Positions 29,901-60,169 of a stretch of 64,000 bases of DNA are shown here, piece after piece. The notes below the pieces were generated by a model. That model saw only the letters and a list, made by a program, of their open reading frames with translations, was not told the DNA's origin and searched no databases. The translations under genes and the position numbers were made by a program. Numbering within the stretch: position 1 is the stretch's first letter; the number at the start of each line of letters is the position of its first letter. The DNA comes from Octopus vulgaris (lineage: Eukaryota): assembly GCA_951406725.2 (NCBI GenBank), contig OX597819.1, forward strand, positions 40,548,001 through 40,612,000, read 5' to 3'.

Positions 29901-32900
29901 TTGGCGAAAGCGATGTGGTGGACAACGAGAAACCTGGCTGATGACAGTCAAGGCTGATCTGGAACCCAACTTAGGCCCCCATATCTATGGCGTTCGCCGC
30001 TGGAATAAGGAGTGGTTGGAGATCACGCGGTCGTTAGCCTCAAATCACCAGGCCTGGTCGGCGTTTGTGAGAGCTGCAGTATTGAGGATAAATGAAGCCA
30101 GCTCAACCCACCCCGGATGAATGCTGTCTCAAGTCAAGTCAAGTCAATGTTAGACTGGACATTCTTAACCCATTCAGTCATAGAAAAACAAGTTTAACCC
30201 TTTCATTACCAAACCGGCTCTGGCTCTGAATACAAATGTTTTGTTTTCATAAGTTTTGAATTAAAAGCTTCCACCAAACCTTGGTCACAGTTTATGTTAC
30301 TAACACTAGCTGAATGATAACTAAGTTGTTTTACTAAATTCTTTGTTATATTCAAAGTAATTAAAAGAAACACAGAGCATCTCAAAATAAATACGGTAAT
30401 GAAAGGGTTAAAGATGTTGGTCATGGTGGTGATGGAGATTGGGTAGTGTATTATTTACATTTGGGTTCATGCCATTAATTCCTGCTAGTTTCCAGATGTT
30501 TAGATGTAGCAACCTTTACATAATTAACAGAAATAAAAACAAGATGGGAGTGTATCATCATATGATTTCTTATTGTAATAAGAGATACCAAAATTTATAT
30601 TTTACTGCACTGTTCATCCATTGATTAGTTACATAATAATGTCACATTATCAAAAATGTGTATAAATCACTATTCCTTGTTGCATTTTTATTTATATTTT
30701 TGTATATAAGAGCTGAAATTTATGTGAATAGGACCAGTGTCTTTTGTAAGGATTAATATATACGTTTGTACTTGTAAATTTATACTTATGTATTTATTTG
30801 TTTCCAGGTAGAAAAATATTGTCCCATGTAAAGTTAATTAAAGCCAGTGTTGGAGCTGCATGTCATTCAAGTGATAAAAACAGGTGAGACTAATTATCAA
30901 AGTTAGTGGTTCAATACATGAAAGAACATATTTAATGCGGTTTGTAAAATGTTCAGGCTTATATTGTTTCATTGAATTCCTTGTGGCCAAGTAAGTCGTG
31001 GAACTTGAGTTCAATCATTAAATGTTTACCTCTTTAGTATTTAAACTGATAATGTCTGGACCCGTGTATTTTTTTGTTTTTTGAATTTTTCCTTCTTTGT
31101 TCAGACTGGCCAGATCCAACCTCTCGCATTTACCCTACATTGTCATTCTAAACATTAACAATCACAACCTCGAAATCCTGAAGCTACAAGATAATACATG
31201 TTTAACTCAAAACAATGTGAATAAATAAGCATTACATTTCACAGGGTGATTAGAATGTTAATGGGTTAAGCAAGTTTCCTTATCATTTACTTTGGTTCTG
31301 TCCTCCTGGTAGAAATCATCCTTAGTGCCAAAGAAGCAGATTAGCTGTAAAACCTGTTCGTAGAACACAGGTTTATCTAACAATACTAACACACAGTATT
31401 AATAACTAGTTAGTGATTAAAGTTAACATGTTGTACTGTTGACATCATAGTAATAAGGTTCAAAGCTTTGCAAGCACTGTTTAATATTTCAGGATAAGCA
31501 ATATTTTTGCAGGTTTCAGTTCTGTTATTAAAATCAGGTACCCTTTCTGCTTCATAGTTGAGGGAATTAACAAAAGATATCCGACTCCAAAACCAGCTGT
31601 TCCAAGAGGCCAGAGCTGACATAAAATAGACAGAATATTTGGGCCAGATATGGTCGGTTTATGTGCTAAAGAGATAAGTCTTGCTTGCTCAGTTCTGTCT
31701 GTAAAGAAGAACCATGAAATTGATGCTGCTCATTGCTATAGACATGGGAGACCACTCTGTAATTGCTAAGCATTTTGTTATCTATCTGTACAGATTTTGA
31801 GTTACAGGAATCCATTCCAGTGTATTATTGCACGAAAATCCTGTAAATGTTTTATCAAGGTCACCGAGCACCATTTGATGCAGTTGCTTTATTTAATACA
31901 TGTACACTTACAAGGTTGTAAACTACTGATGATATGGGCATATAAGTCTAAATCTTACTGAAGCTGTTGTGACTCTGAGCAGAGCATACACATATAATTT
32001 TGCTTGCTGCAGATTTCCTGATGGCTAAGAAGCAGTCTTCACTCTTCCATCACAGTTAAGAAAATTCTTTTACCAGTAAGATAGAGCATTCAGCTGTAAA
32101 ACTGAAATGTTTGTACACACTTGTGTGTGCACCTGTGCATGTATATATGTGTGTGCGTGTTGTATAAATGAATATATATATATATATAAACAACTTATAA
32201 ACAAGGGCAAAAGAAAAAATTCTGATGCCAAATATGCTGAAAATAGACAAATCGTCAATAACCATATAATTTATCACTATAAGCATGCATCTTGAAGTAA
32301 GCCAACAGAAATTTCTAAAAATTTCCGTTATTGTATCGGTCCCAATTTCAGAGTTAATTCATAAGAATTTTCTCCTCGTCAGCGATAAATACGGTAAGAA
32401 ATAAATGAAATACTTACTTATATCTATGGAAGAAGCAAACACTAAGTCATGAGCACACCTAAGTACCCCAAATATATCCAAAATAGAAATTCTCCAGCAC
32501 ACCTCGAGACACGTGCGATCGGACTGAAAACTCTCGTAGAGTGAGAGAGTCCGGAAGTGAACACTATTAAATTTACATCTAATATTTTTCTTTTGCCCTT
32601 GTTTATAAGTTGTTTATAAATTTAACCTTTAAAGGTATTTTTTAATATGCTGGCCATTGATAGAATTTTTTTTCGAAAAATTTTATCCTATTTTAGATAT
32701 ATATATTATGTATTTCATATATATACATACATTCTCTTTTTCGTTTCTTTTTTCCAGTGTTAATAGTGTCTTGTTAGCCTCTGGTATTCCAGAAGATGTT
32801 GCTAAAAGTTCTATCCGCTTATCAGTCGGGCGTGAGACATCCTTAAATGACATTGCCATTGCTGTAGAAGATCTGAAACAAGCCGTGTCACTGGCGAAAT

Positions 32901-32929
32901 CCAAGGATGCTGCTGCTGATACTGATTGA
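14094..32929 (+). CDS. SCLY: Selenocysteine lyase (class V PLP enzyme), spliced CDS of 12 exons
   Basis: All exons join in frame with GT-AG introns; motifs [21 protein letters not shown] (Asp typical of SCLY rather than NFS1/IscS Lys), HTDAAQ, GHK (PLP Lys) [20 protein letters not shown] (catalytic Cys), IRLSVGR. Confidence 0.93.
14620..15000 (-). mobile_element. CR1-type LINE 3' fragment
   Basis: RGHSKKLY...[21 protein letters not shown] on -; (TTGAA)n-like tail. Confidence 0.8.
15300..16460 (+). mobile_element. Old CR1/L2/Jockey-group LINE reverse transcriptase relic
   Basis: [27 protein letters not shown] resembles decayed DISKAFDRVWH...PTLFLLYINDL; similar relic on - at ~12540-13030. 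Confidence 0.6.
16610..16681 (+). CDS. SCLY: SCLY exon: [24 protein letters not shown]
   Basis: ttctag| and |gtaagt, phase 1-1. Confidence 0.9.
18622..18650 (+). CDS. SCLY: SCLY exon: [10 protein letters not shown]
   Basis: ttgcag| and |gtaatt; conserved motif. Confidence 0.92.
19733..20097 (-). mobile_element. CR1-type LINE 3' fragment
   Basis: [16 protein letters not shown]...RGHSEKLY...WNKLPDEMV; (TAAC)n tail; same family as 14620-15000. Confidence 0.85.
21705..21892 (+). pseudogene. U2 snRNA retrocopy (degenerate)
   Basis: ATCAAAGTGTAGTATCT (branch-point pairing region), TTAATATCTGAT, ATATTAAA, GCTTGCTCC, CCTGGTATTGCAGCACCTCCAGG (stem-loop IV) in U2 order; 5' stem-loop and Sm site mutated. 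Confidence 0.88.
22029..22200 (+). CDS. SCLY: SCLY exon: ANNMILQ...[17 protein letters not shown]...TA
   Basis: tccag| and |gtagct. Confidence 0.9.
22537..22800 (-). mobile_element. RTE 3'-UTR copy
   Basis: Same tail as 9240-9405; further copies at 26425-26690, 42946-43405, 53225-53600, 56505-57100 (-). Confidence 0.8.
23028..23155 (+). CDS. SCLY: SCLY exon: [12 protein letters not shown]...[11 protein letters not shown]
   Basis: ttgcag| and |gttagt. Confidence 0.9.
23259..23417 (+). CDS. SCLY: SCLY exon: PIAKIC...[11 protein letters not shown]...MTIVGHK
   Basis: tatag| and |gtaaac; PLP-binding lysine. Confidence 0.93.
24533..24639 (+). CDS. SCLY: SCLY exon: FYGPRIGA...[11 protein letters not shown]
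   Basis: cttag| and |gtaagt. Confidence 0.92.
25453..25489 (+). CDS. SCLY: SCLY exon: [12 protein letters not shown]
   Basis: tatag| and |gtaagt. Confidence 0.9.
25922..26308. repeat. Unclassified interspersed repeat fragment embedded in (TA)n/(TC)n microsatellites
   Basis: Complex sequence bounded on both sides by microsatellites, context like the Penelope-related elements in this window. Confidence 0.4.
27002..27085 (+). CDS. SCLY: SCLY exon: ACTLVKHN...RNYLEEKLE
   Basis: tacag| and |gtgctg, phase 0-0. Confidence 0.85.
28100..28500 (-). mobile_element. RTE LINE C-terminal relic
   Basis: GHMVRM...[13 protein letters not shown] on -. Confidence 0.7.
28560..28662 (+). CDS. SCLY: SCLY exon: [12 protein letters not shown]...[10 protein letters not shown]...LE
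   Basis: tccag| and |gtaagt. Confidence 0.92.
29047..29469 (+). mobile_element. Non-autonomous element: tRNA-like head + hammerhead-containing body, preceded by an inverted copy of its 3' part
   Basis: ~135-bp inverted arms 29087-29223 / 29334-29468; tRNA-like segment 29230-29302; CTGATGA..GGCTG/CAGCC..GAAAC core reconstructed from the two arms. Confidence 0.8.
29230..29302 (+). pseudogene. tRNA-like (Arg-ACG-resembling) Pol III head, not a functional tRNA
   Basis: A box TGGCATAGTGG, B box GTTCGATTC, AAGATTCC and TCCTGGCTG segments as in tRNA-Arg; acceptor stem poorly paired. Confidence 0.65.
29560..30147 (+). mobile_element. RTE LINE 3' relic with (CAAGT)n tail
   Basis: Decayed C-terminal ORF ([25 protein letters not shown]) followed by TCAAGTCAAGTCAAGTC. 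Confidence 0.6.
30198..30407. mobile_element. piggyBac-type MITE
   Basis: 13-bp TIR CCCTTTCATTACC / GGTAATGAAAGGG flanked by TTAA on both sides. Confidence 0.85.
30808..30883 (+). CDS. SCLY: SCLY exon: GRKILSHV...[13 protein letters not shown]
   Basis: tccag| and |gtgaga; catalytic Cys. Confidence 0.92.
32185..32618 (-). mobile_element. Non-autonomous hammerhead-containing element with inverted termini
   Basis: ~35-bp perfect inverted ends TATAAACAACTTATAAACAAGGGCAAAAGAAAAA; internal hammerhead-like fold 32334-32387; inserted next to (TA)n. Confidence 0.7.
32758..32929 (+). CDS. SCLY: SCLY last coding exon: [11 protein letters not shown]...[10 protein letters not shown]...DTD*
   Basis: ttccag| acceptor, TGA at 32927-32929. 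Confidence 0.92.
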
Positions 32930-33031: not shown

Positions 33032-33140
33032 AATAAAAAAAAGAAAATGTACATGGTTGTACCTTTTTTTGGTCAAAGAAGAAGGGTTTTATAGACACAT
33101 GTTTACAAAATTTATGTAACTCTGTCTTGTGCAGAATAAA
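33032..33140 (+). terminator. Candidate proximal poly(A) signals of SCLY
   Basis: AATAAA at 33032-33037 and 33135-33140. Confidence 0.45.
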
Positions 33141-33599: not shown

Positions 33600-34580
33600 T
33601 ATTTTGCTGTAACCATAGGAACTAAGCAGAAGCTGAAATGAATGTGATGAAGCTGCAAGCTCCTGGAAGGGTAGTTGTAAGCTTACATCACTTGATCGGT
33701 GGTAGCTGAGATCCCAAGGTGTGTTCACAGGCCTTTTGCATAGTCTGAAGCGTTCTGCGTTGCTGGCATCCGCAACCCCTTCACACATTTGAAGTGTTCT
33801 GGTGTTGCTAGCATTTGTCTGATAGCTGGAGTGTTCTGGTGTATTCAGACATTCTGCTGTGGGAACTTTGCCTTGCTGACAGTGTATGCTGTTCTGACCA
33901 TAGAACGTTAAGTGGAAGCTGAAACAATTGTGATGAAGCTGCAATTCCTGGATGGGTTTTTGCATGGTTGCATCTTTTGATTGGCAGCTAATGTAGTATG
34001 GTATAGTCTCAGGACTTGTCATACATATATATGTCTGCCTCACAGCTGGAATTTTTTGGTGTAGTCAAATGCAATATTACTTGACTCAGCTGAAATATTC
34101 TGGTATCACCCGCCTAACAGCCTCGTGTATTCTGGTGTAGTCACGTTGTGTCGAAATGCTACGTGTTCTGATGTAATCAGAGTATGTGATGCACAGCCTG
34201 AAGCATTCTGGTGTAGTTAATGCATGTTGCACTGCCTGAGGTATTCCAGTGTAGTTAATGCATGTCAAACAGATGGTAATGGTCAGGTGTGCCCATAACA
34301 AGTGACGTGGTTTGAAGTTGTTTTGGTCTAGTCACAGTTACCTGGTATCTGCGTCAAGTCACTGTACTTGATTGCAGCTTGATGTGTTTCCAATGTAAAG
34401 TGCTAAAGTGTTTTTTTATGTCCTGACAGCATCTTGTATGCTGTCTCTATTTTTACAACATAGTTGCAGTTCATAATGCATAAAGCTTAAAGTGTTCCAA
34501 CACAGAGATTTGCTTAAACACTTAAGATGTTGTCACAAAGCATCTGACACAATAAATGAAGTATTCTGAAGTAATAATCA
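33600..34580. repeat. Degenerate direct-repeat array (~20-bp motif, ~36-45 bp period, plus ~290-bp duplication)
   Basis: Recurrent GCYTGAAGYRTTCTGGTGTAGT-like motif; 33610-33710 duplicated at 33897-33992. Confidence 0.7.
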
Positions 34581-37500
34581 TCACATTGGTTATTAAAATA
34601 GGTACCAGTGATATTCAGAGAATTGATTTACTTGACTTTGTCCCTTCTCCTGAAAGAGTCAATTCACTCAGTCAAATTATATCAATGCCTCTGTATTTCC
34701 TGCCTATATTCTAAGGTCAGTCTACTTCCATTTGTTGAGGTAACAAACTAATGACTTTATTACTATAGCAACTGTATCTTTCTAATGTTTTGTTTAACTG
34801 TTTTGGTAACTGTCTTCTATCACCTTAAGTAATAACATCATCATCATCTTAGAACCAACCAATGCTGCCTTGTAGAGTTTATTTCTTTACTTTGTACTTA
34901 TTTGATAATGTCTAATGACTCAACCATTTCTTTTATGATCATGTTTGTAATTTTTGCATCAGTTTTATATTTTTTTACCATCATTTTCTCTTCCCCCACC
35001 CACTAAATCAGTCAGCTACATCACTTTTCTGCTAGTCATAAATAATTTGGCTGTACGGTTCAGAAGATCACTTTGCAACTATGTGGTTTCATGTTCAATC
35101 TTACATTGAAACACATTGGGCAAGTGTCTCTTACTATAGCCATGAGTCAACCAAAGTGCTGTGAGTAGAATTTGGTAGACGGAAACTGAGTGGAAACCCA
35201 TTTGAGGGACTGTGCTGTTCTTGAGATGGGCCTTAATCTATCTGTTGGTTTAACACTACCACCTGGCCCATAGATGCTTTTAGCAAAGTCTACTGTGTCA
35301 TAAGCATTCCGGCCAGATGTTAGTCTGAGGATAACATCTTCCCCATCAGTCTTGAAGGCCCTGAAAAACGTCATGGGAGCTGCCCTTCCTCCGTTGACTA
35401 AATCATAAAAAATATATGTTTATTTGGATCTGAATCCTACCAATGAACTATGTGGTGGTTACACTTACAGAAACATATATGTGGGTTTCTTCATACGCTC
35501 ACACATATGCTACCATATTAAAGCATATGCTAACAGATAGACATATGGGTTTATTCCACACTCATTTCACACAATGTAAAGACATTTATTTCATGTAGAG
35601 GTAATACATACATTTACATATTACATATGTGAATATGTGTTACATACATACATACATACATAATACACAATGTTATTCAGCTACATATACATATTGTTCA
35701 TGCAAACACACACACAAACATGCAGGCGCAATATATAACAGTATACACACACATTATGCATGCATGCATTCACACATCAAATGTAACATATGCTGATTAT
35801 ATAAAAAAAAAAGGAAGAAAAAAAAATATTGCTCCAACTTGGCTATATCCATAATTTAAACAAACTAAAAAAAAATGCAAAGAACTAAAGAACCTCACCT
35901 TCTTCTTTGGTAACAATCAATGGTACTTTCTCTCTTCAACTATTACAAACTATTGTAACAGCAACAGCTGTTTCAGAAATACACTTAGTGGCATTTGTTG
36001 CTCTTGGTGTTTTCCTCATAGCTCTTCTAAGCTCCTGACTTGGACATTGAGTACTTTCAAGCTTCCTGGTTTATCTAGTTGAAGTTTTTTTTTTCTTTCA
36101 TTCAAATTGACCTCTATTATTATTATTATGATGATTATTACAGACAGCATTTGAATGGCACAAGCTGTAGAGCTCCAGACAAAATACCTGTGGTATTTAG
36201 CTCAATTCTGAGTTCAGATCCTGTTGAGGTAAAATTTTGTCTTTCGTCCCTCTTGACAAAGCTCCAGTTATATACAGAAAGTCACTTCAATTGACAGTAT
36301 ACCTAAACCCTATAAATGTTTGACTTCATGCCACTGTAAGAAATCATTGCTGAAGATCAAGTCTTTGAATTCTATTGAACCACATTTCCGGCAGTAATAT
36401 TTATTAATTCCCTGTCAAGCCTTCCTTTAACAACAGTTGGCTTCATTAAAGAAAGAACAGGGTTGTTGTTTTTTTCTTAATAATACACACATAAACACAC
36501 ACACACACACACACATGCATATTAATGCTGGAAAATGAAGACATAGCAAGTGTAAGGTGTCAGCCTACCTCAGCCTACTGCTCTTCAGATATTACTTTGT
36601 AAAACCAATAATGAATTTTTTTTTAATATGACAAAACAAGATATTCACCAAAGTTTATTAATAAAACGAAAGAATATATAATTGACAAATGAATGCAGGG
36701 GAAAACATTTTTTGAAAGTTATTTTTAAGATTATTTTTAAAGAATCACCTCTCCCCTTCTGTTCTTGTTTTGGAAATATTTGTCTTAAAATTTTTGAAAA
36801 TATACCATTTTTCAAAATGGTAATAACTAGCTGCTATTATTTTTATTATTATTAGAATGGCAGAATTGTTAGTATGTCAGACAATTTCATGTGGTATTTC
36901 GTTTGACACTACATTCTGAGCTCAAATCCCACCAGGGTCAACTTCACCTTTCCTCCCTCTGGGAAGTGATAAAATAAAGTACCAGTTGAGTACTGGGGTC
37001 AACGGCATCGATTCCCTCCTCCCCTCGAATTGCTGGCATTGTGCCAAATTTAAAAAGAATTATTATTATTGAGCTGACAGAATTGTTAGCACACCAGGCA
37101 AAATCCTTAGTGACATTTCATCCGTCTTTACGCTTTGAATTCAAATTCCACCAAGGTCCATTCTGCCTTTCATCCTTTCAGGGGTCAATAAGTACCAGCT
37201 AAACACTGGGATCGATGTAATTGACTTATCCCATCCCCCAAAACTGCTGGCCTTGTGCCAAAATTTGAAACCATTATTATTATTATTATTAATATTATTA
37301 TTATCATTATTATATGTTTTTAAATTGTAATTTTGTTTTTAAAACTCAAAATTTTCCAGAGAATCATCAAGTCCCGAAATAAGTTTGGTTGTCAGAAGAG
37401 AGACTATAAAAAAAAGTTGTCTCTAAAGTTTTGACAAACCTTATTCATACATTTTCTCTGGTTGCATTTTTTTTTTTGCCATATAATTTTTTTTTAAGAG

Positions 37501-38021
37501 AAAAAAAACATAAAAGAAAAGTTATTTCATTTTATTTTCTTTATAATAATTATGATTTTTTTTCTTTTTAACTGTTGTATATGAAAGCTTTGAGTTTATT
37601 TTAAAAAAAGAGGTTTTCTACAAAAGAAAAAGCAAAAATAATAATTCAAACAAAAATTTAATATATTTAAAAAAAACAAAAATTGATTTAGTAAGAAAAT
37701 AGAATATGAGAACATTTTTTCTCTTTTTTTTTTGTTATTTTCTTTCCTTTTTTTTTTTTAAATGATTATCCCGAAAAAGATCATTTTTAAAAATTTCCCG
37801 AATGACTAAAATGAAGAAAAACAATAAAAGAAAAATTGAAGAAATAATGAATACATTTATTTTTCAAAAAAAAAAAAAAAACCTTAAAATTAATTTTTGA
37901 AAGACATCTCTAAGCAAGCAAAATGGTAAATTTAGAAATCTATCTTCAAACTCTTTGACCCGAATATTCTCTCTAACCTTTTAAACTTAGGGAGACATGC
38001 TTAACTCTTTATTATTAATGC

Positions 38022-38050
38022 TACTATTATTATTATCATTATTATTATCA

Positions 38051-38115
<65 letters not shown>
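38022..38115. repeat. (TTA)n microsatellite
   Basis: Direct reading. Confidence 0.95.
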
Positions 38116-38116
<1 letters not shown>

Positions 38117-40635
38117 TTGTTTAATGTTTTCTGCTTGAATGAAAACATGGAAACAATAAAAATAATGAAACATGAAAAAAATATATAATTTTAAAAAGTT
38201 GAAAGGAAAAAAAAAAGAAAGAAAGCAAGCAGATGAGGATACAATTTCTATTTTTTAGTGCCACTTATCAACTATATCACTGAACACTGTTTGTAAATAT
38301 ATCAGCAGATAAAAAGCTTTCATTTCTTGTATGCATGTTAATATATGTGTGTGTATCATGTATGTATATAATGTATATAGAAAAAGCACAATAACTAAGT
38401 GCGTAAGATAGAGAGCTCTTGAGATGGGTGTATGAGTTCATATCATGATAAAAGGCATTGTGTTATTATTGAAAATAGAAGGTACATAACTTGTGTTCCT
38501 CTCTGCTGAACGACAGCAGTAAGGACATGCATGAGGAGAGTCTGGTATCTTAGATCCCAAGATAGACATGACATCTTGCCCAAGCTTGTTTTGTGACTGT
38601 GCATAACCATTATGTATTGAAGCAGAGAAAAACCTGTTTTTGTGCCTCTTCGTTTGTGTTACTCAAGTGTGTATGTATGATGCCTTTTTTAATTTTTTTT
38701 TTTTTTACCCCCTGTAAAATTTTGAAATAGGAATTATGAAACTTAAAATTTTAATTTAATATTTCAGTGTTTTTTTCTTTTTTTTTCTTTTTTTTTTTTG
38801 CAGTTTCTTCCCAATGCCCCTCTCCTCCCACCTCTCACCACTGTCAAATTTTTGTTTTCTTTGAAAGAGGAAAAGAAATACGAAGTTCTATCGAGGTTGT
38901 TTGCATGATATACTAATAAATAAATAAAAAATCAATTTTCATGCTTGCCAGTTCTATAAGTTCAGCTGTTTGGTTGGACAGTATCCTTAACAAAGACAGG
39001 ATGGTCACAGCTTAAAAATTAGTAAAATTATAGCATTTTATTTTTTAACAACAGTATCCCGAACTTCAATAGCAGATCTCAAGTTTTATTATAAGTCCTG
39101 TAGTTTTTACTTGGATTGCTTATATAACAACTCTGAGTTTGAAATCTGCTTCTGATTTGAAAAAAGTATATGTTTATAGGAGTTTGAGTTTGTAACTTTA
39201 GCACTAAGCTCTCAATTTCTGTGCCATGGTTTTCCTCACTCCTCCATTTAAAACCACTTTAGATTATACATGGTGAAAGTGCATGTTCTAGTGATTAGAA
39301 GTGTTTAACTCATTAGGTCATGGTTTCAATTCCTGGACCAGGCAGCACAATGATGTCTTTGAGCAAAGCACTTTATTTTACATTGCTCCAGCTTAATCAG
39401 CTGAAAAGAGTGCCAACTGTGTGCTGGTACAGTTCTCTCTTTCTCTCTCTCCTTCTTGCTGTCACATTTTGAATATGTCACTGGATCAAGAGTGAGAGGT
39501 TCAAGAGGGTGTCTGTATCTGCTCAAAACTAATATAGCACCTAAAACAATGAGCAAAATCATGGTGTGTGTCACCAAGCCATACTCACCTGCAAGTGACC
39601 ACTGGCTGTACAGATTATCTACATTGTCATTCAGTATATTTATTCTAATTTTGATCTTACTGTTTCATACCAACTTATCTATTGGATCATATTTATGTTC
39701 TTCTCTATCTTTTCATACCTTCTCAGGTATTTCTTTTTTATCATTCTCTATTTCTGTTCATATATATATATTTTTGTTTTGCCATCTCCCAAATTGCTTT
39801 ATATGAATTATTTTTGTGTTTTTTTTAACTTGTTATTCTCTCACTTATCAATACCCACCCCCTCCTTGCCACTACCTAAAACTAATTTATTCTGATTTTG
39901 TGACTTTTTCTTTGTATTTTATGTATTTTGTGGAAATATCATATAATCTGCCCTACAGTGGATGTGGATTAATATGATATTTAAAGAAATTATGAGAAAA
40001 TAATCTTTTATTTAAATTTTTTTTTTGTGCATAAATAATGTTAAAGAAAAACCAAATAGATTGGAAAATATTGAAGACAATGATATGATAGAGTGAGATT
40101 AATTTTGATTTTATTTTCCATCTTGATGACCACTGTCATTATCATCATCATCATTTGATTGATTAGCAGGATCAATTAGAGCATAAGACAATGTTTCTTT
40201 TTGGTTCCTTACATTCTGAGTTTGAACCCTACCAAGGTCAACTTTGTCTTTCATCCCCCTGGGATTGATAATATAAAGTACAAGTCAAGCACTGGGGTTG
40301 ATTTAACTAACTCCCTCATCTTAAAATTGCTGGCCTTGTGCCTAAATCAGAAACTATTATTTTATTATTCTTATTATTATTATCATCATCATTTTTATTA
40401 TTATTATTATTATCATCAAGACAGTGGGTTGGCAGAATTGTTAGCATGCTGGGCGAAATGCTTAGCGGTATATTTTGCCCATCCTTATGTTTTGAGTTCA
40501 AATTCCACCGTGGTTGACTTTACCTTTCATCCTTTCAGGGTCGATAAAATAAGTACCAGTTGAATACTGGAGTCGATGTAATCAACTTATCTCCACCCCC
40601 AAACTTACTGGCCTTGTGCCAAAATTTGAAACCAT

Positions 40636-40676
<41 letters not shown>

Positions 40677-42887
40677 TTTCTTCATCATCATCAGTTTTTG
40701 TGTTTACAACTATTACATAGAAATATTTAATTATATTACCAGACTCATCTTGGTGTGCCTCAGGTATATATGTGTTGCATGTATAAATTGTGACTTTTAG
40801 AAGCAGATTTCGTTCAAATTCATCTGTTTTATGGTTTTCACCTTTACTGTTATATCATAATTAATTTATATAAGAAATTGTTATTATTATTATCTGTAAC
40901 ATTGTCATTATTATGTAAAATTGATTTTAATTATTTTTTCAATTACTATGATAATGATGATTTTTTAATTTTCATTTTTATTTTTACTACCATGCTTATT
41001 TGTTTCTTTAAACAATTACAATCTCCTGAAAATAAGCACCTCAACCCGACTCCTAAATTTACAGATAAGCTTTTAAAATTCCAATTTTCAAACAGATTTT
41101 GTTATCAATATTTTTTTTTATATATATGAACATACAAAGGCTAACTTGCCCTCAAACACAGCCACCAGCTTGCACAGAAGAAACACAAAATAACTGTAAT
41201 TTCTAGGGAAGCAAGCAAACAAGCATGCGCACACACCCAAACATGCTTACATGCATGCAAATCACATAAAATATGAAATATATGGTTTTTTTGACTTCAA
41301 AATGTAGGATGCTTATATAAATATCATTGTACTTTCAAACATTTAGAGCAAAGTAAATTGTGTCTGCATGTATGTATATGTATGCATTTGTGTGTGTGTG
41401 TATATATATGTACATATAATACACACCGAAATATTAGCAATATTATTGATGTAGAAGTACATTTCAATAATAATAGCCTTTAAGAAAACATAAAGATCAC
41501 TTTTACTCTTGTTTCATGTTGTCTACTATGTTTCTGTATGTAAAATATTCCAACTCCATCCCAAACCAGAACTAATGCTGGTAAGATGTATAGGATTGCC
41601 TGTCCTTCGTACCTATCCTCTTTCTATGAAATGCCCGACTCTAGAGAAACTCTACATAGACTACATTTAAATCACACGAAACACCCGACTTTTGATTCTT
41701 AATTTAAAAACAAACATCCGTAATTTCAAATTCATATTTCCTAAAAAGAAAAAAATTTCATAACTAAACACTTGTACCCGACTTATACATAATGATAAAG
41801 TTTTGACCCACATGGAAATAACTTTTATAATTTTATGCTACCAGTGTCTCCATGCAAGAGATGGGTTTTGTTTGGAGTAGCATTTAAAGGAATCATCAAC
41901 TTCTAATGAATATGTAAAGTGTTTTACATGTACTAATGTTTTTCCCTCACACTTGTACATTTAAATGCATGTGTGTGTGTCATCCTCAACATCATTGCTA
42001 TTTTACATTCGTTTCCACCTTGGCATATACTTGATAGATTATTGTGATTTGTGTCAGCTCTTGTTCAAACGAACTGCCCTCCTAGATGGGTTGGGAAATG
42101 ACATCTCATTTGTACTTTTCATCTGGCATGGTTTTTAACTGCTGGATATCCCTTCCAACACAAACCATTTTACAGAGTGTGCTAATGTATTATATCATAG
42201 TGCCAGCACTGGAGCAGTTGTCTTGTCTGTTACTTTCTCTGTTTGTTAATGCAAACATGACCGAGAAGGTGAAAAGAAGGAAGAGCATAAATATGATGGG
42301 TGAGTGAATTGGAGCGAATGTGATGATAGGAGAAAAGGTTAATAGAATAGAGTGATCCATAGTTACATGTTGTGGGTGGGGAAGAATGATATAAATCCAC
42401 GATGCTGAGAGAGTTTTCTCAACTAGGAATGATAGGCAGGAATAATGTGAGGTTGAGAGATTAGTGGATAGCAATATAAAGTTGGTGTTAGTAAGAGAGA
42501 ATGATGGCTAGCCAGCCTTATTATACAGGCATCATGATGGTAGAGAGGTAGAATGAGGAAAGATGATGTGTGGGAGCACAGACAGATTCAGTGCCATCAT
42601 TTGTTGTATATTTGTGATATGGTACAATGGATAGTGGGGGAAAGCGAGAAAGTAACATAGAGGGCAGTAGGTGGAGAGTTAACAAGAAAATAATAGATGA
42701 GAGATCCAGCCTAGTCTCCATCTCCAACTCCACCATTTTCACAATTGATTTTTTTTTTACTCTGCTTGCATGGGGAGGCTTGTCACCTCCAGCATTGTGT
42801 CTGCCTCTCATTATAGTTCTTTGTCAGTTTCCAAAGATCAGTCTTCACTTTGCCCGCACGTACCATACAATCATCTCAACAACATGC

Positions 42888-42934
<47 letters not shown>

Positions 42935-42945
42935 GATGGTTACCT

Positions 42946-43405
42946 TCATCATCATCATCATCATCGTTTAACGTCCGCTTTCCATGCTAGCATGGGTTGA
43001 ACGGTTCAACTGGGGTCTGGCAAGCCCGAAGGCTGCACCAGGCCAGTCAGATCTGGCAGTGTTTCTACAGCTGGATGCCAACCACTCCGAGAGTGTAGTG
43101 GGTGATTTTATGTGCCACCGACACAGGTGCCAGACAGGGCTGGCAGACGGCCACACTCGGATGGTGTTTTTTATGTGCCACCGACACAGGTGCCAGACGA
43201 GGCTGGCAGACGGCCACGCTCGGATGGTGTTTTCGGTGTTTTCTTATGTGCCACCGACACAGGTGCCAGATGAGGCTGGCGAACGGCCACAATCGGATGG
43301 TGTTTGTTACGTGCCCACAGCACGGAGGCCAGTCGATGCGGTACTGGCTGCGGTCCCATTCGGATGGTTTTCTTATGTGCCACCGGCACTGGTACCACAA
43401 GGATA
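42946..43405 (-). mobile_element. RTE 3'-UTR copy with five ~60-bp tandem units
   Basis: (CAT)n tail, TTCCATGCTAGCATGGGTTG, repeated GGTG..TTATGTGCCACCGACAC. Confidence 0.85.
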
Positions 43406-43526
43406 TAATTAGTCTTCACCTATCAACATAGTTTGGATAAAAGAAAATTTAAAAAAATACTATGTCACTTGTATATCAATGATTTCTGTCTATCACTTCT
43501 CTCTCTCCCTCTCTCTTTTTGTATAC

Positions 43527-43559
<33 letters not shown>

Positions 43560-43643
43560 TATATATATATATGTATGTATGTATGTATATATATATGTGT
43601 GTGTGTGTATGTATGTATGTATATATATATATGTATATATGTA

Positions 43644-43690
<47 letters not shown>

Positions 43691-44521
43691 GCTGCAAAGA
43701 TGATGATAGGTATAACACAAAGAGAAATTAAAAAATAAAGAGTTGATATTAGTTTGACACTCAGGAAGTGGGGGGGAAATGAAACAAATCTCTTTAACAG
43801 TTTGAGTATCCACTATTCTTCCAAAAGGTAGAATATATGTAAAATGAATAAATGGAAAAGGAAATACTATCTGTATATATATATGTGTATGTATGTATGT
43901 ATGTCATGAGCCAAATCTTCAAATTACCTTTCATCTTAAAACAGACATGTTCAATAATATAGTTCTAGATACACTTGTCTAAAAGTAGATCGGATAGTTA
44001 TGGCTGCAATGCTTTCTTTGGTGATAGACCTGGGAGTGTACAACACTTTTTTTTTATTATCCTGAATGTTATGGGTGGGTAAAAATCATGTAGAAAGAAT
44101 ACCAACACAAATGATGAATAGTAACAATAATAATGAAAATAGGCCATTTTGCAAAGTCTTTGATAATTGTATGCAAAAACAAGGTATGAGAGACATTTTA
44201 TTTTATTTTAATAGTGCTGTAGCTTTTACCTCTTCATATTTTAATCAAATACTAAAAATATTTTTTTTTTATGAACTAAAATTCAGACAGGTATTTTTTC
44301 TTTCATTTTTTTTATACATATATATATATAAAAGTTGAATCAGTAAACCCGAATCATTTAAATGTTTTTGCGCATGTATAAATGCATATATGTGATGTGA
44401 ATATGGGTATATGTATGTATGTATGTATGTATGAATGAATGAATGAACGAACACTGCTCCTAAATAAACTGAGTCCTTTACTCAGTCTCAGTTTCCCATT
44501 GAAGCTATTTCGCTTCATTAA

Positions 44522-44740
44522 CTCTTTAGCATTCAGATTATTCTGTCAAATGTAATGCTTTTCCTTTCACATTGTTTTCAATTAATCATGCATTATTTTG
44601 TAGCTTTGAAATTTTGATGATGTGATTGTATATTTTTAGAATGGCATTCAAGAGTAGGTGTGTTAGGCTGGGTCTTCCTGTTTGAACATAAAACAGGTAG
44701 CATATTTGGGCTACATATGGCTGGTTTAAATGCTAAAGAG
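44522..44740. mobile_element. piggyBac-type MITE (second family)
   Basis: TIR CTCTTTAGCATT / AATGCTAAAGAG with TTAA both sides; related decayed copies at ~27265-27460 and ~31025-31268. Confidence 0.8.
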
Positions 44741-47700
44741 TTAATACCTTCGACATGGCATTTATGTCACTCATTCACATTTTACTGCCAAACTCTCCCA
44801 AAATAAAATCTTAAATTCTAGGCTAATGGAAGAAACAAAATTTGACTATTATTACATATTCTTCATGGGACTGTCACATTAAGTTGACAACATACCATCA
44901 CTTTATCATGCTGCTACTGTATAAATCTCTCTGAGAGATTTAGAAATGTATTATTTCTATCGCTTTTTGAATGGCGGTGCCCCAGCATGGCCACAGCTCG
45001 TGAGCTGAAACTAGATAAAATAAATAAAATAAAATAATGTTTGTATCTACTATTTACTATATTAATACCTTAATTTGCATTCATGCATATGCAGTGTTTT
45101 TTTCTCGTTATCTCCAATGTTGTTTAACTGTAGTTCATTTTATATCGTCCCTTTTGATAAGTTAGTGTTTTTCTTTCTCTTTTTTTTTTATTGATTCTTT
45201 TCTTTTCTGTATTTTTCTGTGTTATCTTTTCACGTTATCTCTACGAATTTCATGTCATCTGTAATTCTAAAATCATGCTCCCGAAACATTTAAAATGAAG
45301 CCTCTGATTATTCCTAATGAAAATCAAAACTTTCAAATGCAAATAATAATAATAACACAGGTTTGTTCCTATTAAAATATTTATTACTACATTCATAATA
45401 AAACTTAAATCATGAGATAGGTTTTTATGCAGTGGCTTCCAATTTTTCTAACTTACTATATAGTTCTCTTCCTTTAAAACAGGTTAAAATAAATTGCATA
45501 TCATTGTTAAATGTCATACTGTTCTATCTTTAAAGAATACTATCTCAGTTAGTGTAATATATATTTTTGTCAGCAGGCTATGTTACTATATTCGTTACAT
45601 TTGTAACAAAAATATTTTACGTATGGCTTTTAGATTTCAATAGAAAGGTGTTTGTTTAAAACTGGAAAGTATTTTGTTAGTTACAAAACTATGTATGTTC
45701 ATGAGTGCAGATATAATGGTCATATAATAGATTCTCAAAGTGAGTAACATCTAAAATATCCTTTGCATTTTTATTCACTCTTAGTTTAAAATGCATATAT
45801 ATATATATATATTATAATTCTCTCGTTGAATATAATATACACTGTAGTGTGTAGAGGTAAATGATTTTTTTTTTTTTCAATATCTAATTGGGGTTTTCAA
45901 ATAGTAGTAAGATCTACATTATTGAGAAAAACATTATTATGGTGTGCCTCTGTGAAGGTACATAACTCTGCTAGCTTGACTGACAAATTGACTTTCCCTC
46001 TACTTCCCATTTGGTTAGCAGTGAGAAAGATTTGGTATCCGACTGTGTACAAGAATACAGTTTCTTTGCACGCAATAAACCATTTCAATTATATATTGCA
46101 CTGACTTGAACTTTCTTATTTCTATGTTCTAGATGTCACCTAAGTACAAGTTAAACTTCATAAAATATGATGTGTAATAATACAGAATGGTTTTTTTTTT
46201 TTCTAATTTTCTTTTATTTTATTCTATTCCTAGAATTATCTATTAGCAGCTTATGATTGCATGCTGCTTCTTGATTTATGAACAGCATGCATATCTTAAC
46301 AATTTTCATTTTATAATAGTTAATATGAAGCATTGTGGAAATAGAGTAATAGCATTTAAGAAAGCTGCCTCAATGTAAATTTGGAAATAAAGCATAAACA
46401 GAAACGTTGTTTACCATTCGTTTCTCAACTTACATTGTTGTGGCTTTCTTAAACTCTGTTTCTTCTGACAGAACCATTAGCATGCTAGGCAAAATGCTTA
46501 GCAGTATTTCGTCCATCTTTATGTTTTGAGTTCAAATTCCACTAAGGTTGACTTTGCCTTTCATCCCTTCAGAGTCAATAAAATAAGTACCAGTCGAACA
46601 GTTAATGTAATAGACTTGTCCTCTCCTCTGGAAATGCTGGCCTTGTGCAAAAATTTGAAACCATTATTTTAACTTCATTTGATATTCAACTATTCATTTA
46701 AAATACTTCCTTCGTTTCATTTTTTTTTTCTCTGTATTATGACTCTCATCATCTTCATTTCACTATAAACTGCCAAAATTGGTGACACTTGGTCATCTAA
46801 CTTGGAAACTTTAGACCAGTAGTAGCTGGGTTTTTGTTTTGATTTTTGATTATTTTAAAATATAAGTAATATGTGCTGTTCTATGCCATCAGCTCTGATA
46901 CCTTCTTTTCTGTATCATGTATGACTCTAGACTTACTAATGGACTATCTTATCTGATAACTTCACAGTTACACTTTTGAAATGTGATATCCTGATGTGAA
47001 CAAAATTGTCACTTTTCATTGTTATTGTTTACTCATATTTTAAGTAATGATAATGGTTTTACAGTAGCTTTAGTCTTACTTCAATTTATATAACATTAAA
47101 AAAAAAATTAATTTACCTTTCAACATCAAAATTATCAAAATGCAAAACAAATTTTTTTCCCCAGTTACAGTGCATGTTTGATGTAAAAAAAAAGAATTTG
47201 TGTGTGTGTGTGTGTGTATGCATATAGATAATTCCAGTGTTAAAATTTCTGCAGAAGCTGCCAGATATGTAAATTGCTTGCATGCAATATTATTGGAGCT
47301 CATTTTCCAAGATTTTAACTTTTATCATTTTCTTCCCATAGGAGTATAGTATTTGAAGTATAAACAGTTATTAGCAGTAATCATTATAGGGCTTAATGTT
47401 ATTCATTATTATTGGGTGGCTGGATTAATAGAATCATTAGAGCATTGGAAAAAAAATACCTTGTGGTATTTGTTCTAGCTCTTTACTTTCTGAGTTCAAA
47501 TGCTGCCAACATCAAGTCCGTCATTTATCCTTTCAGGGACAATAAAATGAAGTACTTGTCAAGTGCTGGGGTTTGATAAGACAATCCCTTGAAACCTGTT
47601 GGCTTTTTGCCTAATTTAGAAACAAGAAATTATTATTATTATTATCAACATCATTGTCATCCATGATTATTGACAAACCATTTTATATTGTATAATATTT

Positions 47701-50700
47701 TGTTCTTATTATGAAATGAATTTCTTGTAATAATTAGTCAAATGGGATTATTTTCTCTGAATGTTACATCATATATGTTGACCTTGCTTAGAGGATTTTT
47801 AATGGGCAATTAAAAAATTATTTTTTTAATTTTTAAAGCAGGAATTTAACACTTTGCATATCAAAAACTAGTGCAAGGATTTGTTTTCTTCTCCAAATAT
47901 TTTTTCAAAATTATTATATTTTGGCTTTGAAGCTTAAAACTAGTGCTGGATGTTTTATTACTTAAAAAATAAATAAAAACCCATAAGGTTTCATTATCTA
48001 CTGACTGATTGGTATAGCCATAAATTTGTTTTCTGTTAGAGACTCTTACCTCTGTATTCTCTTTGCAGTGCAGTGCAGTTCAAAAACATATCATTCTCTT
48101 CGCATTTCACTTGCAAAACATGCAAAATCCAAACTTTTGCTCTTTATATTAAAAAAAAAATATGTAAGAAAAAAAAGAAATGAAAACTGCCCATTTTCTC
48201 ACAGATAAATTCATTTGGTGTTTGTTGTCAATTTATTAATATTGGCAGAATGTGAGTGTATCTCTGTCGACTCATATTGAATGATTATTTGTTGTTAGCT
48301 ATGGTATTGCAAACAAAATAGGTGTATGTTTTTGTTATTTTTAATTTTCAATCTGATTCATACAAGTACACACTCTTTCACTAGCCTACCAATTTCAGTT
48401 TTTTTTTTTTTTTTTTTACCATTAGTCTTGTCAGTATGTCTACTCGTCTGTTGCCTATTCATTGAAAGATATTACACAGCAGTGGTCAGCACATCAACAA
48501 GAGACGAATTGCCATTGTTAACTCAATGGCCGTCAGTCATTATTGACTTATAACAGATACAATAATTTGTTACCTAATAATTTGTTATAACTCACCCTTC
48601 TTCAAATGTGATTGCAGCATCATGCAATTAGACGACATTCAGTGTATTTACTAATAGGAACTTGACTTAGTTCTATAACTCAGTAACTATCAATTAACTG
48701 TTAGTAAGCAAACACATCTAAAAACCCTAATTTTCATCTGGTAACTCTACTCTTATACCCGAATTCAACTAATTTGAGCAACTCCCGAAAGAAATTAGTT
48801 TAGGGATACGAGTATATTCCTGAAATAATTATAGTTCTGTGTGTATATATATATATATTATACATATTTTTACAAAGGCAGTTTTTTTCATTGGGTGGTT
48901 TCACAAAGCTGACTGTCTGTGCAATTTTTTTTTTTTTTTAGCTTTGTCAGGAAGTATTTCCTCATTATCGAAGTTGATTGATTAAAATTACTAACATTTT
49001 TATCCCTTGTATGCTGCTGCTAACATCTTAAATAATGCTAAAACTGTCACAGTAAATCTTTGAATCGTTGATGTCTCTGAGCTAGGGGCTTAGAACTTCC
49101 TTTATGTAAGAAGTCTTTTCTTAAACTTTGTCTTTTGCTCTATAGGTCCTTAAGTCTGTGAAATTATATTAGGGAAGTTATTGTATCTTGATAAGTGTTC
49201 TTATTTTCCTTATTTTTTCACACTGGCATATTCTTTGATAACATGTCTGCTTTGTTTAAATGTGGGTCTTCATCTTGGTACACCATCTTTCCTATAAAAT
49301 TATATTGTTATTTAATTATTCTAAAATACTGATTATCAATTCCCATCAAATTCATGATTTTCTTCTGGTTTTGAATTAGTTTACCAGACCTTTCTCCCAT
49401 CTATTCTTTGATTTCCTTGAAATATGCCACAAAATTGACACCCTAACTCTTATTACAGTTATTATGGTTGACTGAATTGTGACGTTTTTTTTTTGTTTTT
49501 TTTTTTCTCTCTTTAGTTTGTACATGAAAGGGGTGGAGGAGGGGGTTCAAACAACTGGACTCCCGATATTCACTAATAAAACGAAACGTTTTAATTGCCC
49601 GAAAACTGACCTCCTTCATCTGCCTCATTTTATGTCAGTAGCATAACTCTTCAACTAAAACAATTCAACCAGATGTTGATGTTTCACTCCTGTCTAAACC
49701 CTCTCTACACATGATGAACTTAATACTAGGAAATAACAATTATAAACCAGTTAACTTTTAGAGGGGAAAAATTTTCAGATATATTAAATTTTTCTTCTAT
49801 GAATATTATGCATTAACTTGATACAAAAATTGCATTTGCTGGTGGATACTGAGACAGAGTTGGTGTTCACCTATCAGTTATCTCCCGAAATAGGGTGATC
49901 CCAGCAGTAAATCAGTATTAAATCCTCCTCAAATGTTTTATTCAGTTAGTTTCTGTCTTTGTTCTTTCTCTTGTGGGTCTAGATGTATCTATCTTCCTTA
50001 GTGGAAATGTAAAGAGACTCAACATACTTGTACAGCTACTAATGACTACTGTTGTACATAGCTGTTTTCACCTCCCGATTGCATGTTAGCTGTGCAACAT
50101 TTAATTTTACAAGTATATCTATATACACTCATACTGTATCTATGTTGGCCTCTTCCATCTCCAACTGTTTTTTTTTTTTCTTTCTTTTTGGTTGAGGGAT
50201 CTCTATTGACAAAGCTATCTACACACTATACGTGGAAGTGTATATGTCTAAGTAATTATTCAAATGTCTCCTGAAAGAAAAATCTACTTATTTCTATTCT
50301 CATTCTCCCGACATATATTTTGTAGATTTCTCTCTATTTAGCTTTGTCATGCGGAGTCCCTTGCCTCCTACTCAGTCTAGTTTCACACTACCCCCTCTAT
50401 TTCATTGACACAACAGTACTCTTGTATTTTTGATATATTTAGATCATTATTGGATTGGATTGCTTTTGGTTATTTAAGTTAGACAACATCACAGTCTCAG
50501 ATCAATTCCCTTAGATGGTTGACATTGACGTCATAAAATAAATACCAGTAATATACTAGGAACAACTCAATTGATGCAACTCCTTCCACTAAAAATGTAG
50601 TGGGCCTTGTGTTTTTTTATCAAAACAAATCATTATTGGCTTATATTAACAACTCTAGGGGCTACTCCTTTTTTATTCTTTTTCTTTTCATTCATTATGG

Positions 50701-51956
50701 ACCTCTTCATTTATCGAAGGATTGATTCTTGTTGTCAGTTCTCTAAAAATTATTATTATTGTTGTTTTAAATGGATAATACCAATGTATCCCATGTTTTT
50801 ACATCATGTCAGATGTTTCAGTCAATTGTTCTTTTACAACACAAGGCTCTCTCTTTTAGAACATCTCTTTTCTCAATCACAAAATCAAAACAAATCGCTG
50901 TTTATCTGTAGCAAGCTAATACAGTCTATTGCACGTCATCCTAAAAGTACAGCGTAATACCTACAGCATACACATCTAAAACTGGAGTCAATAAGAGATC
51001 TTCAGCTTGATAGAAATAGTAGTTGATTCTCTCTCAAGTCACACCTTTAAAAAGATGGGATGGTCATGGCTGAAATGCCTTTGATGATAAACCTTCTCAG
51101 TAAGGGTTGATTTTGGGTTAAATAACAGTAACAATAACATTTAAAACCAAAGCTATGTTGTTTCTTTCTAGCTGTTAACATCCAGTTTGATAATTTTCTT
51201 GCTTACCTATTTCTCAACATCCACTCTGGTTACAAGACAAATTACTCTTTCTTATATATTGTCATATAAAGATAGCTAACCTACTTTCTTCTCATTTTCC
51301 CATCTTCTCGGATGTCTTTTGTTGTAATGTAATTCTGTATTGTACAAGTTCGTCAAAATTTGATTGTTAATCTAGAAGTATAGCTTTGTTTTTTTCTGTT
51401 CCTAAATATTTTATCACATACAAAAAAACCAAAAAAACAACAATAATGCAGTCACCTGGAATTGGTATAGTAATCATTGATACTGAGTACTGAAACTAAT
51501 ACTTCAAATGATTGATTTTTACCATTTATTGTTTTTAATTATTTTAAATTTTGCCTCCATGTTTTTAGTGTAATACAGAAATATTTCAGAAAAGCACAAG
51601 TGCGTGCACACATACACACATGCACACATACACACTTCTTTAATTCTTTGTTTCTAATAGGCTTTGAATAAAAATACATATATGTATATATATTATATAC
51701 TGTAAATGTATATTATATAATGTAAGCTATATATATATATGATATTTCTGGTAATATCGTCTCTTATCTCTAGCTGCCATTTATATATGTACACTAGTTT
51801 TCTGAATATGGAATGTACTAAGAAATTTTATTTATTAATTTTGCAAAGTTGTACACATGTAACATGTTTTCCTTTCTTTGTTTCCATTTTTTTTTTTATA
51901 TACCAAAACTTTTGTGTTTCACTTTTTTTTCTAGAACTTAAAACATTAACTGTCTG

Positions 51957-51998
<42 letters not shown>

Positions 51999-53648
51999 TG
52001 TCATATATATCATTAACTGTCTGTTATATATATATATCATTAACTGTCTGTGTTTTTGTAATATTTTCTGTTTCACTGATCTAAATGTTTGAAGGAAAAA
52101 AACCAAAACCTCTTAAATAACTATTATGTATCTTTATGTATACTCTCTGCTTATCTGATTCTCTGTTTCTCTCTCTCTTCTCACTTCTTGTCTTAGTTTT
52201 TTTTTTTTTTAGACAATGTTTTTACCATGATGTAATAGCAATTTGTAATAAAACAGTTCTTTTAAAGTTGATCAGAGTTCTCTCTTTTCATTTATGTGTT
52301 TTTATTTTTTTAATCAAAAGCATGATCGTTAACCCTTTAACTGTAAAATTAAGCTTCACAATTATTCCAGTAATGATGTTAAATAACGCTGGCAGTCTGC
52401 CGGTTACGACAATGAGGGTCCCTGTTTATTCTATCAATGGAACTGCTTGCACATGAAAATGGCTAACCACTCCACAGACATGCATACCTTTAACATAGAT
52501 CTCAGAGAGATTCAGCATGACACAGAATATAACAAGGCTGGCCCTTTGAAAAACAGGTAAAATTCATTTTTACTGAGTAGACTGGAGCAACATGAAATAA
52601 AGCAACTTGCTTAAGGATACAATGTACCACTGTGATATTCCCTGGTCAACAAATCGTCTGGTAGCTCTGTGCTTTCAAAGGTGAATGGAATGAAAATTCC
52701 TTTACTTGTAAACCAGATAAGAGTTAGCAACAAGAAGTGTACCTGGCTGTAAAACAATACCTCAGTAATATGTAGTCGTCTAACCCATGCTAACATGGAG
52801 AAATGGACATCAACTGAAAAAAATACTGTTTAAATATTAGTCTATTATAAATAATATGGCACATTATAAGCACCAATTTGAGAATGAGTGGAACAGCATA
52901 CCCTCTAACAAGTCTTGAACCATATATTTATGTCTTGATGTTCTTCTATACTGTCTTAAATTGTTTCTTATATCACCTGATATCATTTACATTAATTTTG
53001 TCACAGTATACGACCTTTATAGGTAGATGTTGGCATGGTGATAGTAAGGGCATTTGGCTGTAGAATATCAGTCACAATAAGTTCCGTCCAACCCATGCAA
53101 GCATGGAAAAGTAGATGTTTAAACAAAGAAAATCGAAAAATAATAAACACATATGCACACATTCCCAACTCGCTTCTGTACAGTTTCTCTTTACCGAATT
53201 TCACTAATGACTTATTATATCAACATTGTCATTGTAGTCAACATTTAATGTTTGCTTTCCATGCTGTCATGGGTTGGACAGTTTGACAGGAGTTGACCAT
53301 GCAGAAGACTGCACCAGACTTCTGTTTCTGTTTTGGCATGATTTTTACAGCTGGATGTCCTTCCTTCCTAACACCAACCACCCAGCAGAGTGGACTGAGT
53401 GCTTTTTACATGGCACAAGCACAGGGGAGGTCAGTTTTGGCATTTTTTTTTTTTTTTTTATAGCTGGAATCCCATCCAAGCACCAACCACTTTACAGTGT
53501 GGACTGGATGCTCTTTACATGGCACTAACATTGGCAGGATCGCCAAGTAACTTGCAAGACAAAGATCCTTTGAGAAGGAGCTTTCGAGGAGGTGATCTTG
53601 TGCCAGAATGATGAAAGGTCAGAGTATGGCAGAGAGACAGAAACAGAA

Positions 53649-59421: not shown

Positions 59422-59735
59422 TCAGTACTCTACACCAAACTTTTCAAATCCTCGTAATATGACACCAAGTTGAAGTGTGACTGTTCCACGAGCAATGGTA
59501 TGTAGCCGGTAGCGATCTGTAGCACAATAAACTAGATCAGGACGTCGGAGCTGGGCACTGCCACCAATAAAATACTGTGATATTTGTTCCCACAATGTTC
59601 CTGTTGGACTCCATGTTGGGCACTCAATAACATGCATCCCAGGAGAAGAAGGTACATGACAGAATCCATAACCATAGTGCTGATTCCGACCAAAGTTATC
59701 CTGGCACCAAACTTGCAGATAAATTTTGGGCCAAC
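59422..59735 (-). CDS. B9D2: B9 domain-containing protein 2 (ciliary transition zone), last coding exon
   Basis: GWPKIYLQVWCQDNFGR..YGYGFCHVPSSPGMH..CPTWSP.G...FIGG...DRYRLHT..GTV.L.LG..LRGFEKFGVEY matches the B9D2 C-terminal half; tgcag| acceptor at 59737-59736; upstream exons not found in the window. Confidence 0.93.
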
Positions 59736-60169
59736 CTGCATATAAAAATAGAGAAAAATACACAAAGAGAATTAAGAGTTGTATTTAGTAAGAAATATTC
59801 TTATATTTAAACAGTTTCATATTAATATTCTTGCTAAACTGGCAGTGCTTCTACCGACGGTGCTCCAGCAAGGCCACAGCTTTAGGGCTGAAATGTATAA
59901 AAGAATAATAAAAAAAATAATAAAACATAAGGCAGAGAGCTGGCACAATCGTTACTACATTGGACAAAATGCTTAGTGATATTTCTTCAGATTTGACATT
60001 CAGAGTTCAAATGTTACCAAGGTTTACTTCACCTTTCACCCTTTTGGACTCGGTGAAATAAGTACCGAGTGCTGGGGTTGATGTAATTGACTTCCTCCTC
60101 CCCTAAAAAAAATTGCTGGCCTTGTTTCTAAATTTGAAATCATTATTCTTGCTAAACACACCACACAAA

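Follow-up and report, generated by a model that had tools for sequence, protein, structure and literature searches.

Decoy RNAs of bacteria, such as CsrB and RsmZ, are a few hundred nucleotides (nt) long and present dense short words in loops or in single strands between different stems. Here we describe an array of 18 CCCGA words on one strand of Octopus vulgaris DNA, found in a window of 64,000 nt (C6:40548001–40612000; C6 is 135.6 Mb long, and the genome, 2.8 Gb), and all positions below are those of the window unless a contig is named. The array resembles the bacterial RNAs in having many copies of a short word, predicted to lie in loops or single strands between differing stems, but its 18 sites are dispersed over 13 kb. 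Among long non-coding RNAs (lncRNAs) the same logic is known for NORAD, a single strand of which offers 17 or more sites to one RNA-binding protein, Pumilio (PMC4947167). NORAD, however, is a proven, abundant and conserved RNA assembled from repeated units that can be recognised, whereas the octopus array has unrelated flanks and another word, and its RNA, reader and conservation are putative. The word itself coincides with the core of the nucleolin recognition element (NRE), which is (U/G)CCCG(A/G) presented by a stem-loop and recognised by RRM1-2 of nucleolin, the form obtained by in vitro selection (SELEX) being UCCCGA (PMC2919729, PMC12293987).

Within the octopus a likeness is offered by the Z-linked lncRNAs Zmast and Zfest, which are non-coding units of 14–18 kb (10.1101/2024.12.09.627507). 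The array was considered as a part of either one, and this was rejected: it is located on C6, while Amnionless, the host gene of Zfest, maps to C16, so that the array locus is autosomal, and the Zmast and Zfest regions contain no CCCGA array (0–3 words per strand per 10 kb). The segment at the preprint coordinates of Zmast (C16:19559966–19561845) contains a degenerate, self-complementary unit built around CCAGG, in about 19 copies, distributed 23 vs 0 by strand in the tile. In the open literature we found no description of the C6 locus, of its motif or of a CCCGA array.

The explanation we favour, with a probability of roughly 0.55, is that the array belongs to a long + strand RNA that selection maintains and that serves one RNA-binding protein as a multivalent platform. 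Eighteen CCCGA sites lie outside repeats and one more inside a repeat, with none on the opposite strand, and the reverse complement TCGGG is absent between 32826 and 53764:

37373–37963, + strand: cluster A, CCCGA at 37373, 37770, 37797 and 37959, none in repeats
39058–39062, + strand: single CCCGA with T at –1, without a stable stem
41045–41781, + strand: cluster B, CCCGA at 41045, 41634, 41684 and 41777, each followed by CT and preceded by A or G at –1, unpaired and not in stable hairpin loops by prediction
43025–43029, + strand: CCCGA in a copy of a dispersed repeat, covered by 57 background matches and excluded from the count
44348–44352, + strand: single CCCGA with A at –1
45280–45284, + strand: single CCCGA, preceded by CT and followed by A, in a weak predicted 19-nt loop
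48758–50311, + strand: cluster C, CCCGA at 48758, 48784, 49562, 49598, 49884, 50074 and 50307, the densest and most structured of the clusters

The base at –1 is T in ten sites, A in six and G in two, and the longer forms CTCCCGA and TCCCGAA occur six and seven times, respectively. The flanks show mild preferences: C never occurs at –1, nor G at +5 or +6, and ten of the 18 sites have U at –1 (P 0.02–0.06, uncorrected); C stands at –2 in six of the ten T sites (P 0.005). Besides the grouping into three clusters, 4 of the 17 gaps measure 26–50 nt (P 0.035). The flanks of the 18 sites are mutually unrelated, a search for tandem arrays yielded none spanning the sites, and none of the repeats seen in the background loci covers any of the 18. 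The original prediction, made from the same letters, is thus exact in all 18 start positions, in the excluded copy at 43025, in the three flank classes, in the lack of TCGGG and in its claim that the array is not a tandem repeat. Searches for paralogues with segments 48600–50400 and 37300–39300 returned nothing beyond simple repeats, and the stretch is single-copy.

For comparison we used a background of 80 ten-kb genome tiles (66 at arbitrary positions and 14 chosen near the locus or on C16), enlarged by 18 additional local tiles to 98, and repeats were masked by BLAST against the background loci. The segment 37000–50500 contains 19 CCCGA, split 19:0 by strand, vs 1.1 expected from dinucleotides (P 2e-17); trinucleotides raise the expectation to 3.5 (P 8e-9). 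In the repeat-masked interval 36000–52300, where 18 CCCGA are observed vs 0.7 expected, it is alone among all 5-, 6- and 7-mer cores in being outstanding. The 17 CpG-poor tiles among the 80 have at most three CCCGA per strand, and the 24 CpG-poor tiles among the 98, at most four vs 14 here. In this the interval resembles a NORAD-type lncRNA, where a short motif recurs along a single strand more often than chance would give. A genome search with the paired-motif pattern gave 454 matches vs 859 for the reversed control, and the first 30 of these 454 loci (C1 and C2 only) are tandem repeats or CpG-rich, with no CpG-poor dispersed array among them.

The words have also kept their CpGs. The observed to expected CpG ratio is about 0.85 around the window start, falls to 0.1–0.3 over 8–76 kb and is high again near 88 kb, so that the interval lies within one CpG-depleted domain, presumably methylated. 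In the repeat-masked interval CCCGA supplies 18 of the 68 CpGs vs 1.1% of CpGs in the 80 tiles, and in the 98-tile comparison the top share is 5% vs 15% here. The decay forms CCTGA and CCCAA together number 12 vs 18 intact CCCGA, a ratio of 0.67, while the same ratio in the 24 CpG-poor tiles is 11.6. Because decay forms are this few in a domain with a CpG ratio of 0.2–0.3, the word appears to be maintained in this interval; a decaying relic would give more decay forms than intact words, the reverse of what is observed. Three TCCTGAAA words (at 41025, 48819 and 50270) lie 20–37 nt from a CCCGA site and may once have formed pairs with it before deamination (P 0.016, a post hoc test).

Predicted folding points to exposure of the word on the + strand. 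Its mean unpaired probability is 0.75–0.77 with flanks of 30–70 nt, compared to 0.57–0.65 for the word planted at random positions (P<=0.003), 0.66–0.68 when flanks are swapped between the sites (P 0.0007–0.006) and 0.54–0.60 for 55 natural CCC anchors, 150 planted 11-mers and 73–80 natural CCCGA elsewhere (P<=0.002). At 15 of the 18 sites the value is higher than at positions matched for G/C (P 0.0014), and the word is more unpaired on the + strand than in five of five control sets; on the minus strand the signal is weaker (P 0.04). The following predicted hairpins involve sites of the array:

37760–37786, + strand: 8-bp hairpin with UCCCGA of the 37770 site in an 11-nt loop, the sole NRE-like geometry (z –1.7, loop probability 0.85)
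48767–48800, + strand: 9-bp stem with the 48784 site in a 16-nt loop
49532–49574, + strand: strong hairpin in which the 49562 site is paired (z –3.8)
49859–49905, + strand: stem closing a 20-nt loop that contains the 49884 site (z –1.7)
50050–50099, + strand: strong hairpin with the 50074 site at the tip, the word partly paired (z –2.8)
50280–50329, + strand: 8-bp stem with the 50307 site in a 34-nt loop (z –2.4)

Four of the five hairpins originally proposed (37770, 48784, 49884 and 50307) fold as described, while the stem at 41777 is unstable (z +1.4). Display in loops seems to concern mainly the UCCCGA sites: loops of up to 20 nt have probabilities of 0.42–0.85 at five of these ten and at most 0.19 at the other eight. 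Compared to planted controls, the ten are enriched in such loops (P 0.0005–0.013; the split was made after seeing the data) and the eight are not (P 0.5–0.6), the direct difference between them being not significant (P 0.08–0.21). Enclosing stems differ from planted controls at P 0.002–0.055.

The + strand is the likelier transcribed one, since an excess of T over A on it runs from the upstream gene SCLY to about 52–56 kb, being reversed over B9D2. Sequencing runs were matched by the share of sampled words of 44500–51500 in their contigs, for 24 listed runs, none of them on record as RNA; where a run is called RNA below, its kind is only guessed. Fourteen guessed-RNA runs from four studies, with 61–199 million contig letters, contain 46–66% of these words, on par with the 48–63% in three sets of 1.5–3.8 billion letters; in three further small runs, of a kind not known, the share is 40–48%. 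As the word shares of small contig sets equal those of genome-sized sets, we infer that most of 44500–51500 is present in transcriptome-sized assemblies. These shares, together with the skew, point to a putative single, abundant transcript spanning the sites.

The array is non-random and one-stranded, its flanks are unrelated and single-copy, and it is free of CpG decay; it is a striking array of one motif on one strand, probably selected. Under the favoured explanation, the 18 CCCGA words would be selected binding sites on one long RNA, which would run on the + strand to about 52.27 kb and, acting as decoy or scaffold, bind one sequence-specific RNA-binding protein in many copies. The word, in the fuller form D-CCCGA-H-W, would be held single-stranded, with about five UCCCGA sites in hairpin loops according to the folding model, some of them in pairs 26–50 nt apart. 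Such an RNA may arise when transcription of SCLY continues beyond the proximal poly(A) signal, or it may be a separate lncRNA, at about even odds.

Several observations weigh against this explanation. The folding is a prediction on AU-rich sequence; with flanks of 20 nt it gives zero structural signal (P 0.28–0.43), the stability of the flanks is not above that of planted controls (P 0.85), and the enclosing stems are not significant compared to natural CCC anchors (P 0.24 and 0.06) and, compared to planted controls, reach only P 0.08–0.18 when every close pair is reduced to its poorer site. Hairpin-loop probability exceeds 0.5 at only 3 of 18 sites (P 0.20), and the 49562 hairpin is a counter-example to loop display, so of the earlier statement that many sites lie in hairpin loops there remains that the word is mostly unpaired, with about five sites in loops. 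No CpG-rich promoter was found between 33 and 56 kb, and four smaller guessed-RNA runs have 0–3% of the sampled words of 44500–51500. Finally, both interval and word were selected post hoc, CpG-rich tiles attain 13–14 CCCGA per strand, and correction for all 5-mers over the whole genome gives 1e-6 at 1.1 expected, but 0.03 at 2 expected.

The leading alternative, which we still consider unlikely, is that the words are oriented DNA sites. A DNA-binding protein, of the zinc finger, CXXC or Myb-type terminator kind, would then recognise CCCGA/TCGGG in one direction, keep these CpGs free of methylation, and influence chromatin or polymerase traffic between the two converging genes. It would account for the survival of CpGs only in CCCGA inside the CpG-depleted domain, and a parallel exists in the ribosomal DNA (rDNA), where 190-bp spacer repeats upstream of 18S have CCCGAAA twice per unit in one orientation, that of the rRNA-sense strand, with a count of 28 vs 4 over 5.5 kb. 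A reader of duplex DNA, however, would not predict single-stranded exposure on the + strand, the sites form neither a palindrome nor a fixed spacing, and the word in AT-rich context has no genome-wide excess (2257/2323 vs 2843/2814 for the control). Moreover, the rDNA excess traces to a single independent unit that is repeated (P 0.29), and the non-repeated sequence preceding 18S has 3 vs 3. The 190-bp repeats may be untranscribed enhancers, and their CCCGAAA is a lead either for an RNA reader in the nucleolus or for an oriented reader of DNA. The rDNA unit itself (C20:23975001–23995000) is about 18.4 kb long, its spacer containing 141-bp repeats and then the 190-bp ones; the latter are nested in higher-order units of 1.2–1.4 kb, each led by a TATA-containing segment resembling a spacer promoter. 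In the same unit internal transcribed spacer 1 has a 362-bp tandem repeat, and the 18S match is 2.6 kb long.

That the array is a chance extreme without function, drawn from a 2.8-Gb genome and all possible words, is quite unlikely. The corrected P of 0.03 and the counts in CpG-rich tiles given above speak for it, and it is because the correction spans 1e-6 to 0.03, depending on the expectation used, that we go no further than this. On the other side, the local expectation yields the lower figure, the best dispersed 5-mer in any of the 80 tiles has log10 P –7.2 vs –12.8 and –9.2 in two tiles of this region, and the unpairing signal is independent of the count. Less probable still is an array of targets, or a sponge, for a small RNA with the seed UCGGGA(G), which would fit the ten TCCCGA with their longer forms, the C at –2 and the predicted accessibility of the sites; eight of the 18 sites, however, break the seed at the same position, so that a second small RNA would be needed, and the seed was not found in two supplement files of PMC9699675, which contain no list of mature sequences.

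A worn-out relic of a satellite or mobile element containing the word appears already largely refuted: a 23-bp satellite, a short interspersed element (SINE) and the rDNA spacer repeats of this genome do have CCCGAAA, and three of the five CCTGA stand 20–37 nt from a site (P 0.016), but of 21 positions in the satellite unit the flanks share 6.1, vs 5.2 ± 2.0 at random, no tandem array covers the sites, there is no paralogue, and the CpGs would be the first to go. The 23-bp CCCGAAA satellite is found at C4:176380839–176381820 and elsewhere, with a long array near the end of C4.

Returning to the favoured RNA platform, among readers that can be named the best candidate is an RRM protein of the nucleolin type, though as a specific assignment it is rather doubtful. 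The cores are identical, 10 of 18 sites are the SELEX hexamer UCCCGA, 12 of 18 fit (U/G)CCCG(A/G), and the UCCCGA sites appear to favour hairpin loops. U at –1 is commoner than in the background (10/18 vs 24/88, P 0.02), while U and G combined are not (P 0.10). In contrast to the NRE, six sites have A at –1 and CCCGG is absent; loops of the array are mostly 16–34 nt or missing, with one of the 18 sites in a loop of the 7–14 nt usual for the NRE; and the host is AT-rich RNA polymerase II territory, not pre-rRNA. The original prediction of a scaffold or decoy RNA for nucleolin or a similar RRM protein divides: a non-random array that is not tandem, on the likelier transcribed strand and with the word predicted to be unpaired above controls, holds, and nucleolin as its reader is not established.

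The yeast orthologue Nsr1 selects another motif, GGGNAANG (PMC3045596), and Drosophila Modulo has four RRMs (PMC11879677). In the octopus, no nucleolin was recognised by eye among 70 of 115 RRM matches (150 of 256 candidates scored). Four intronless genes (on C10, C11 and C23) resemble four-RRM poly(A)-binding proteins, as labelled by eye, two of them without the long C-terminal part. It is possible, if quite improbable as a whole, that an octopus RNA of 13–19 kb, made by polymerase II behind SCLY, titrates or scaffolds a nucleolin-type protein via dispersed UCCCGA loops, with the word that also recurs on the sense strand of the rDNA spacer; this would be an invertebrate nucleolar decoy built by motif selection and not by repeat expansion, with NRE specificity predating vertebrates.

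The array interval is flanked by SCLY on the + strand and a converging B9-C2 (B9D2-like) gene on the minus strand, with the following features around it:

32750–32929, + strand: matched part of the last coding exon of SCLY (selenocysteine lyase) with the stop codon (best PDB match, residues 385–426 of 432, E 6e-9)
33135–33140, + strand: AATAAA, likely proximal poly(A) signal of SCLY, as read from the sequence, with its use inferred
52247–52252, + strand: AATAAA followed by a T-rich tract, at the point where the T>A skew declines, a candidate 3' end of the long RNA
59422–59784, minus strand: last coding exon of the B9-C2 (B9D2-like) gene (Pfam PF07162, E 3e-34)

An exon upstream of the last SCLY exon also matches selenocysteine lyase. 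Between the two genes, the longest open frames are repeat-derived, and the eight open frames of 33–51 kb scanned with Pfam have zero matches; like a multivalent lncRNA, the interval appears to have no protein-coding capacity. A tRNA scan of the interval gave none, and an Rfam scan, none at the gathering score, with 27 sub-threshold matches nearly all on simple repeats. A metagenome scan for an orthologous interval produced one unrelated match of 33%.

Some repeats of the window have features of their own. A decayed short repeat (TTCTGGTGT-like, + strand only) occupies 33600–34400, just past the SCLY poly(A) signal and before a drop in GC at about 36 kb. From 21427 to 59930, 11 consecutive matches to a short SINE-like repeat share one orientation, several of them head to tail after ATT tails, and copies outside this segment, within 164 kb, are of mixed orientation. 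An open frame of 969 amino acids at 5834–8743, with endonuclease and reverse transcriptase, belongs by its translation to an apparently intact RTE-type long interspersed element.

Functional lncRNAs are hard to spot, as they do not align across species, and a CpG-containing word surviving 18 times on one strand of a CpG-depleted region would be a direct sequence signature of selection. CCCGA also provides a five-base handle for mutagenesis. If the RNA explanation is true, the locus would give a candidate functional long RNA in cephalopods, together with a motif through which its reader can be isolated; if that reader is nucleolin, NRE recognition would extend beyond vertebrates.

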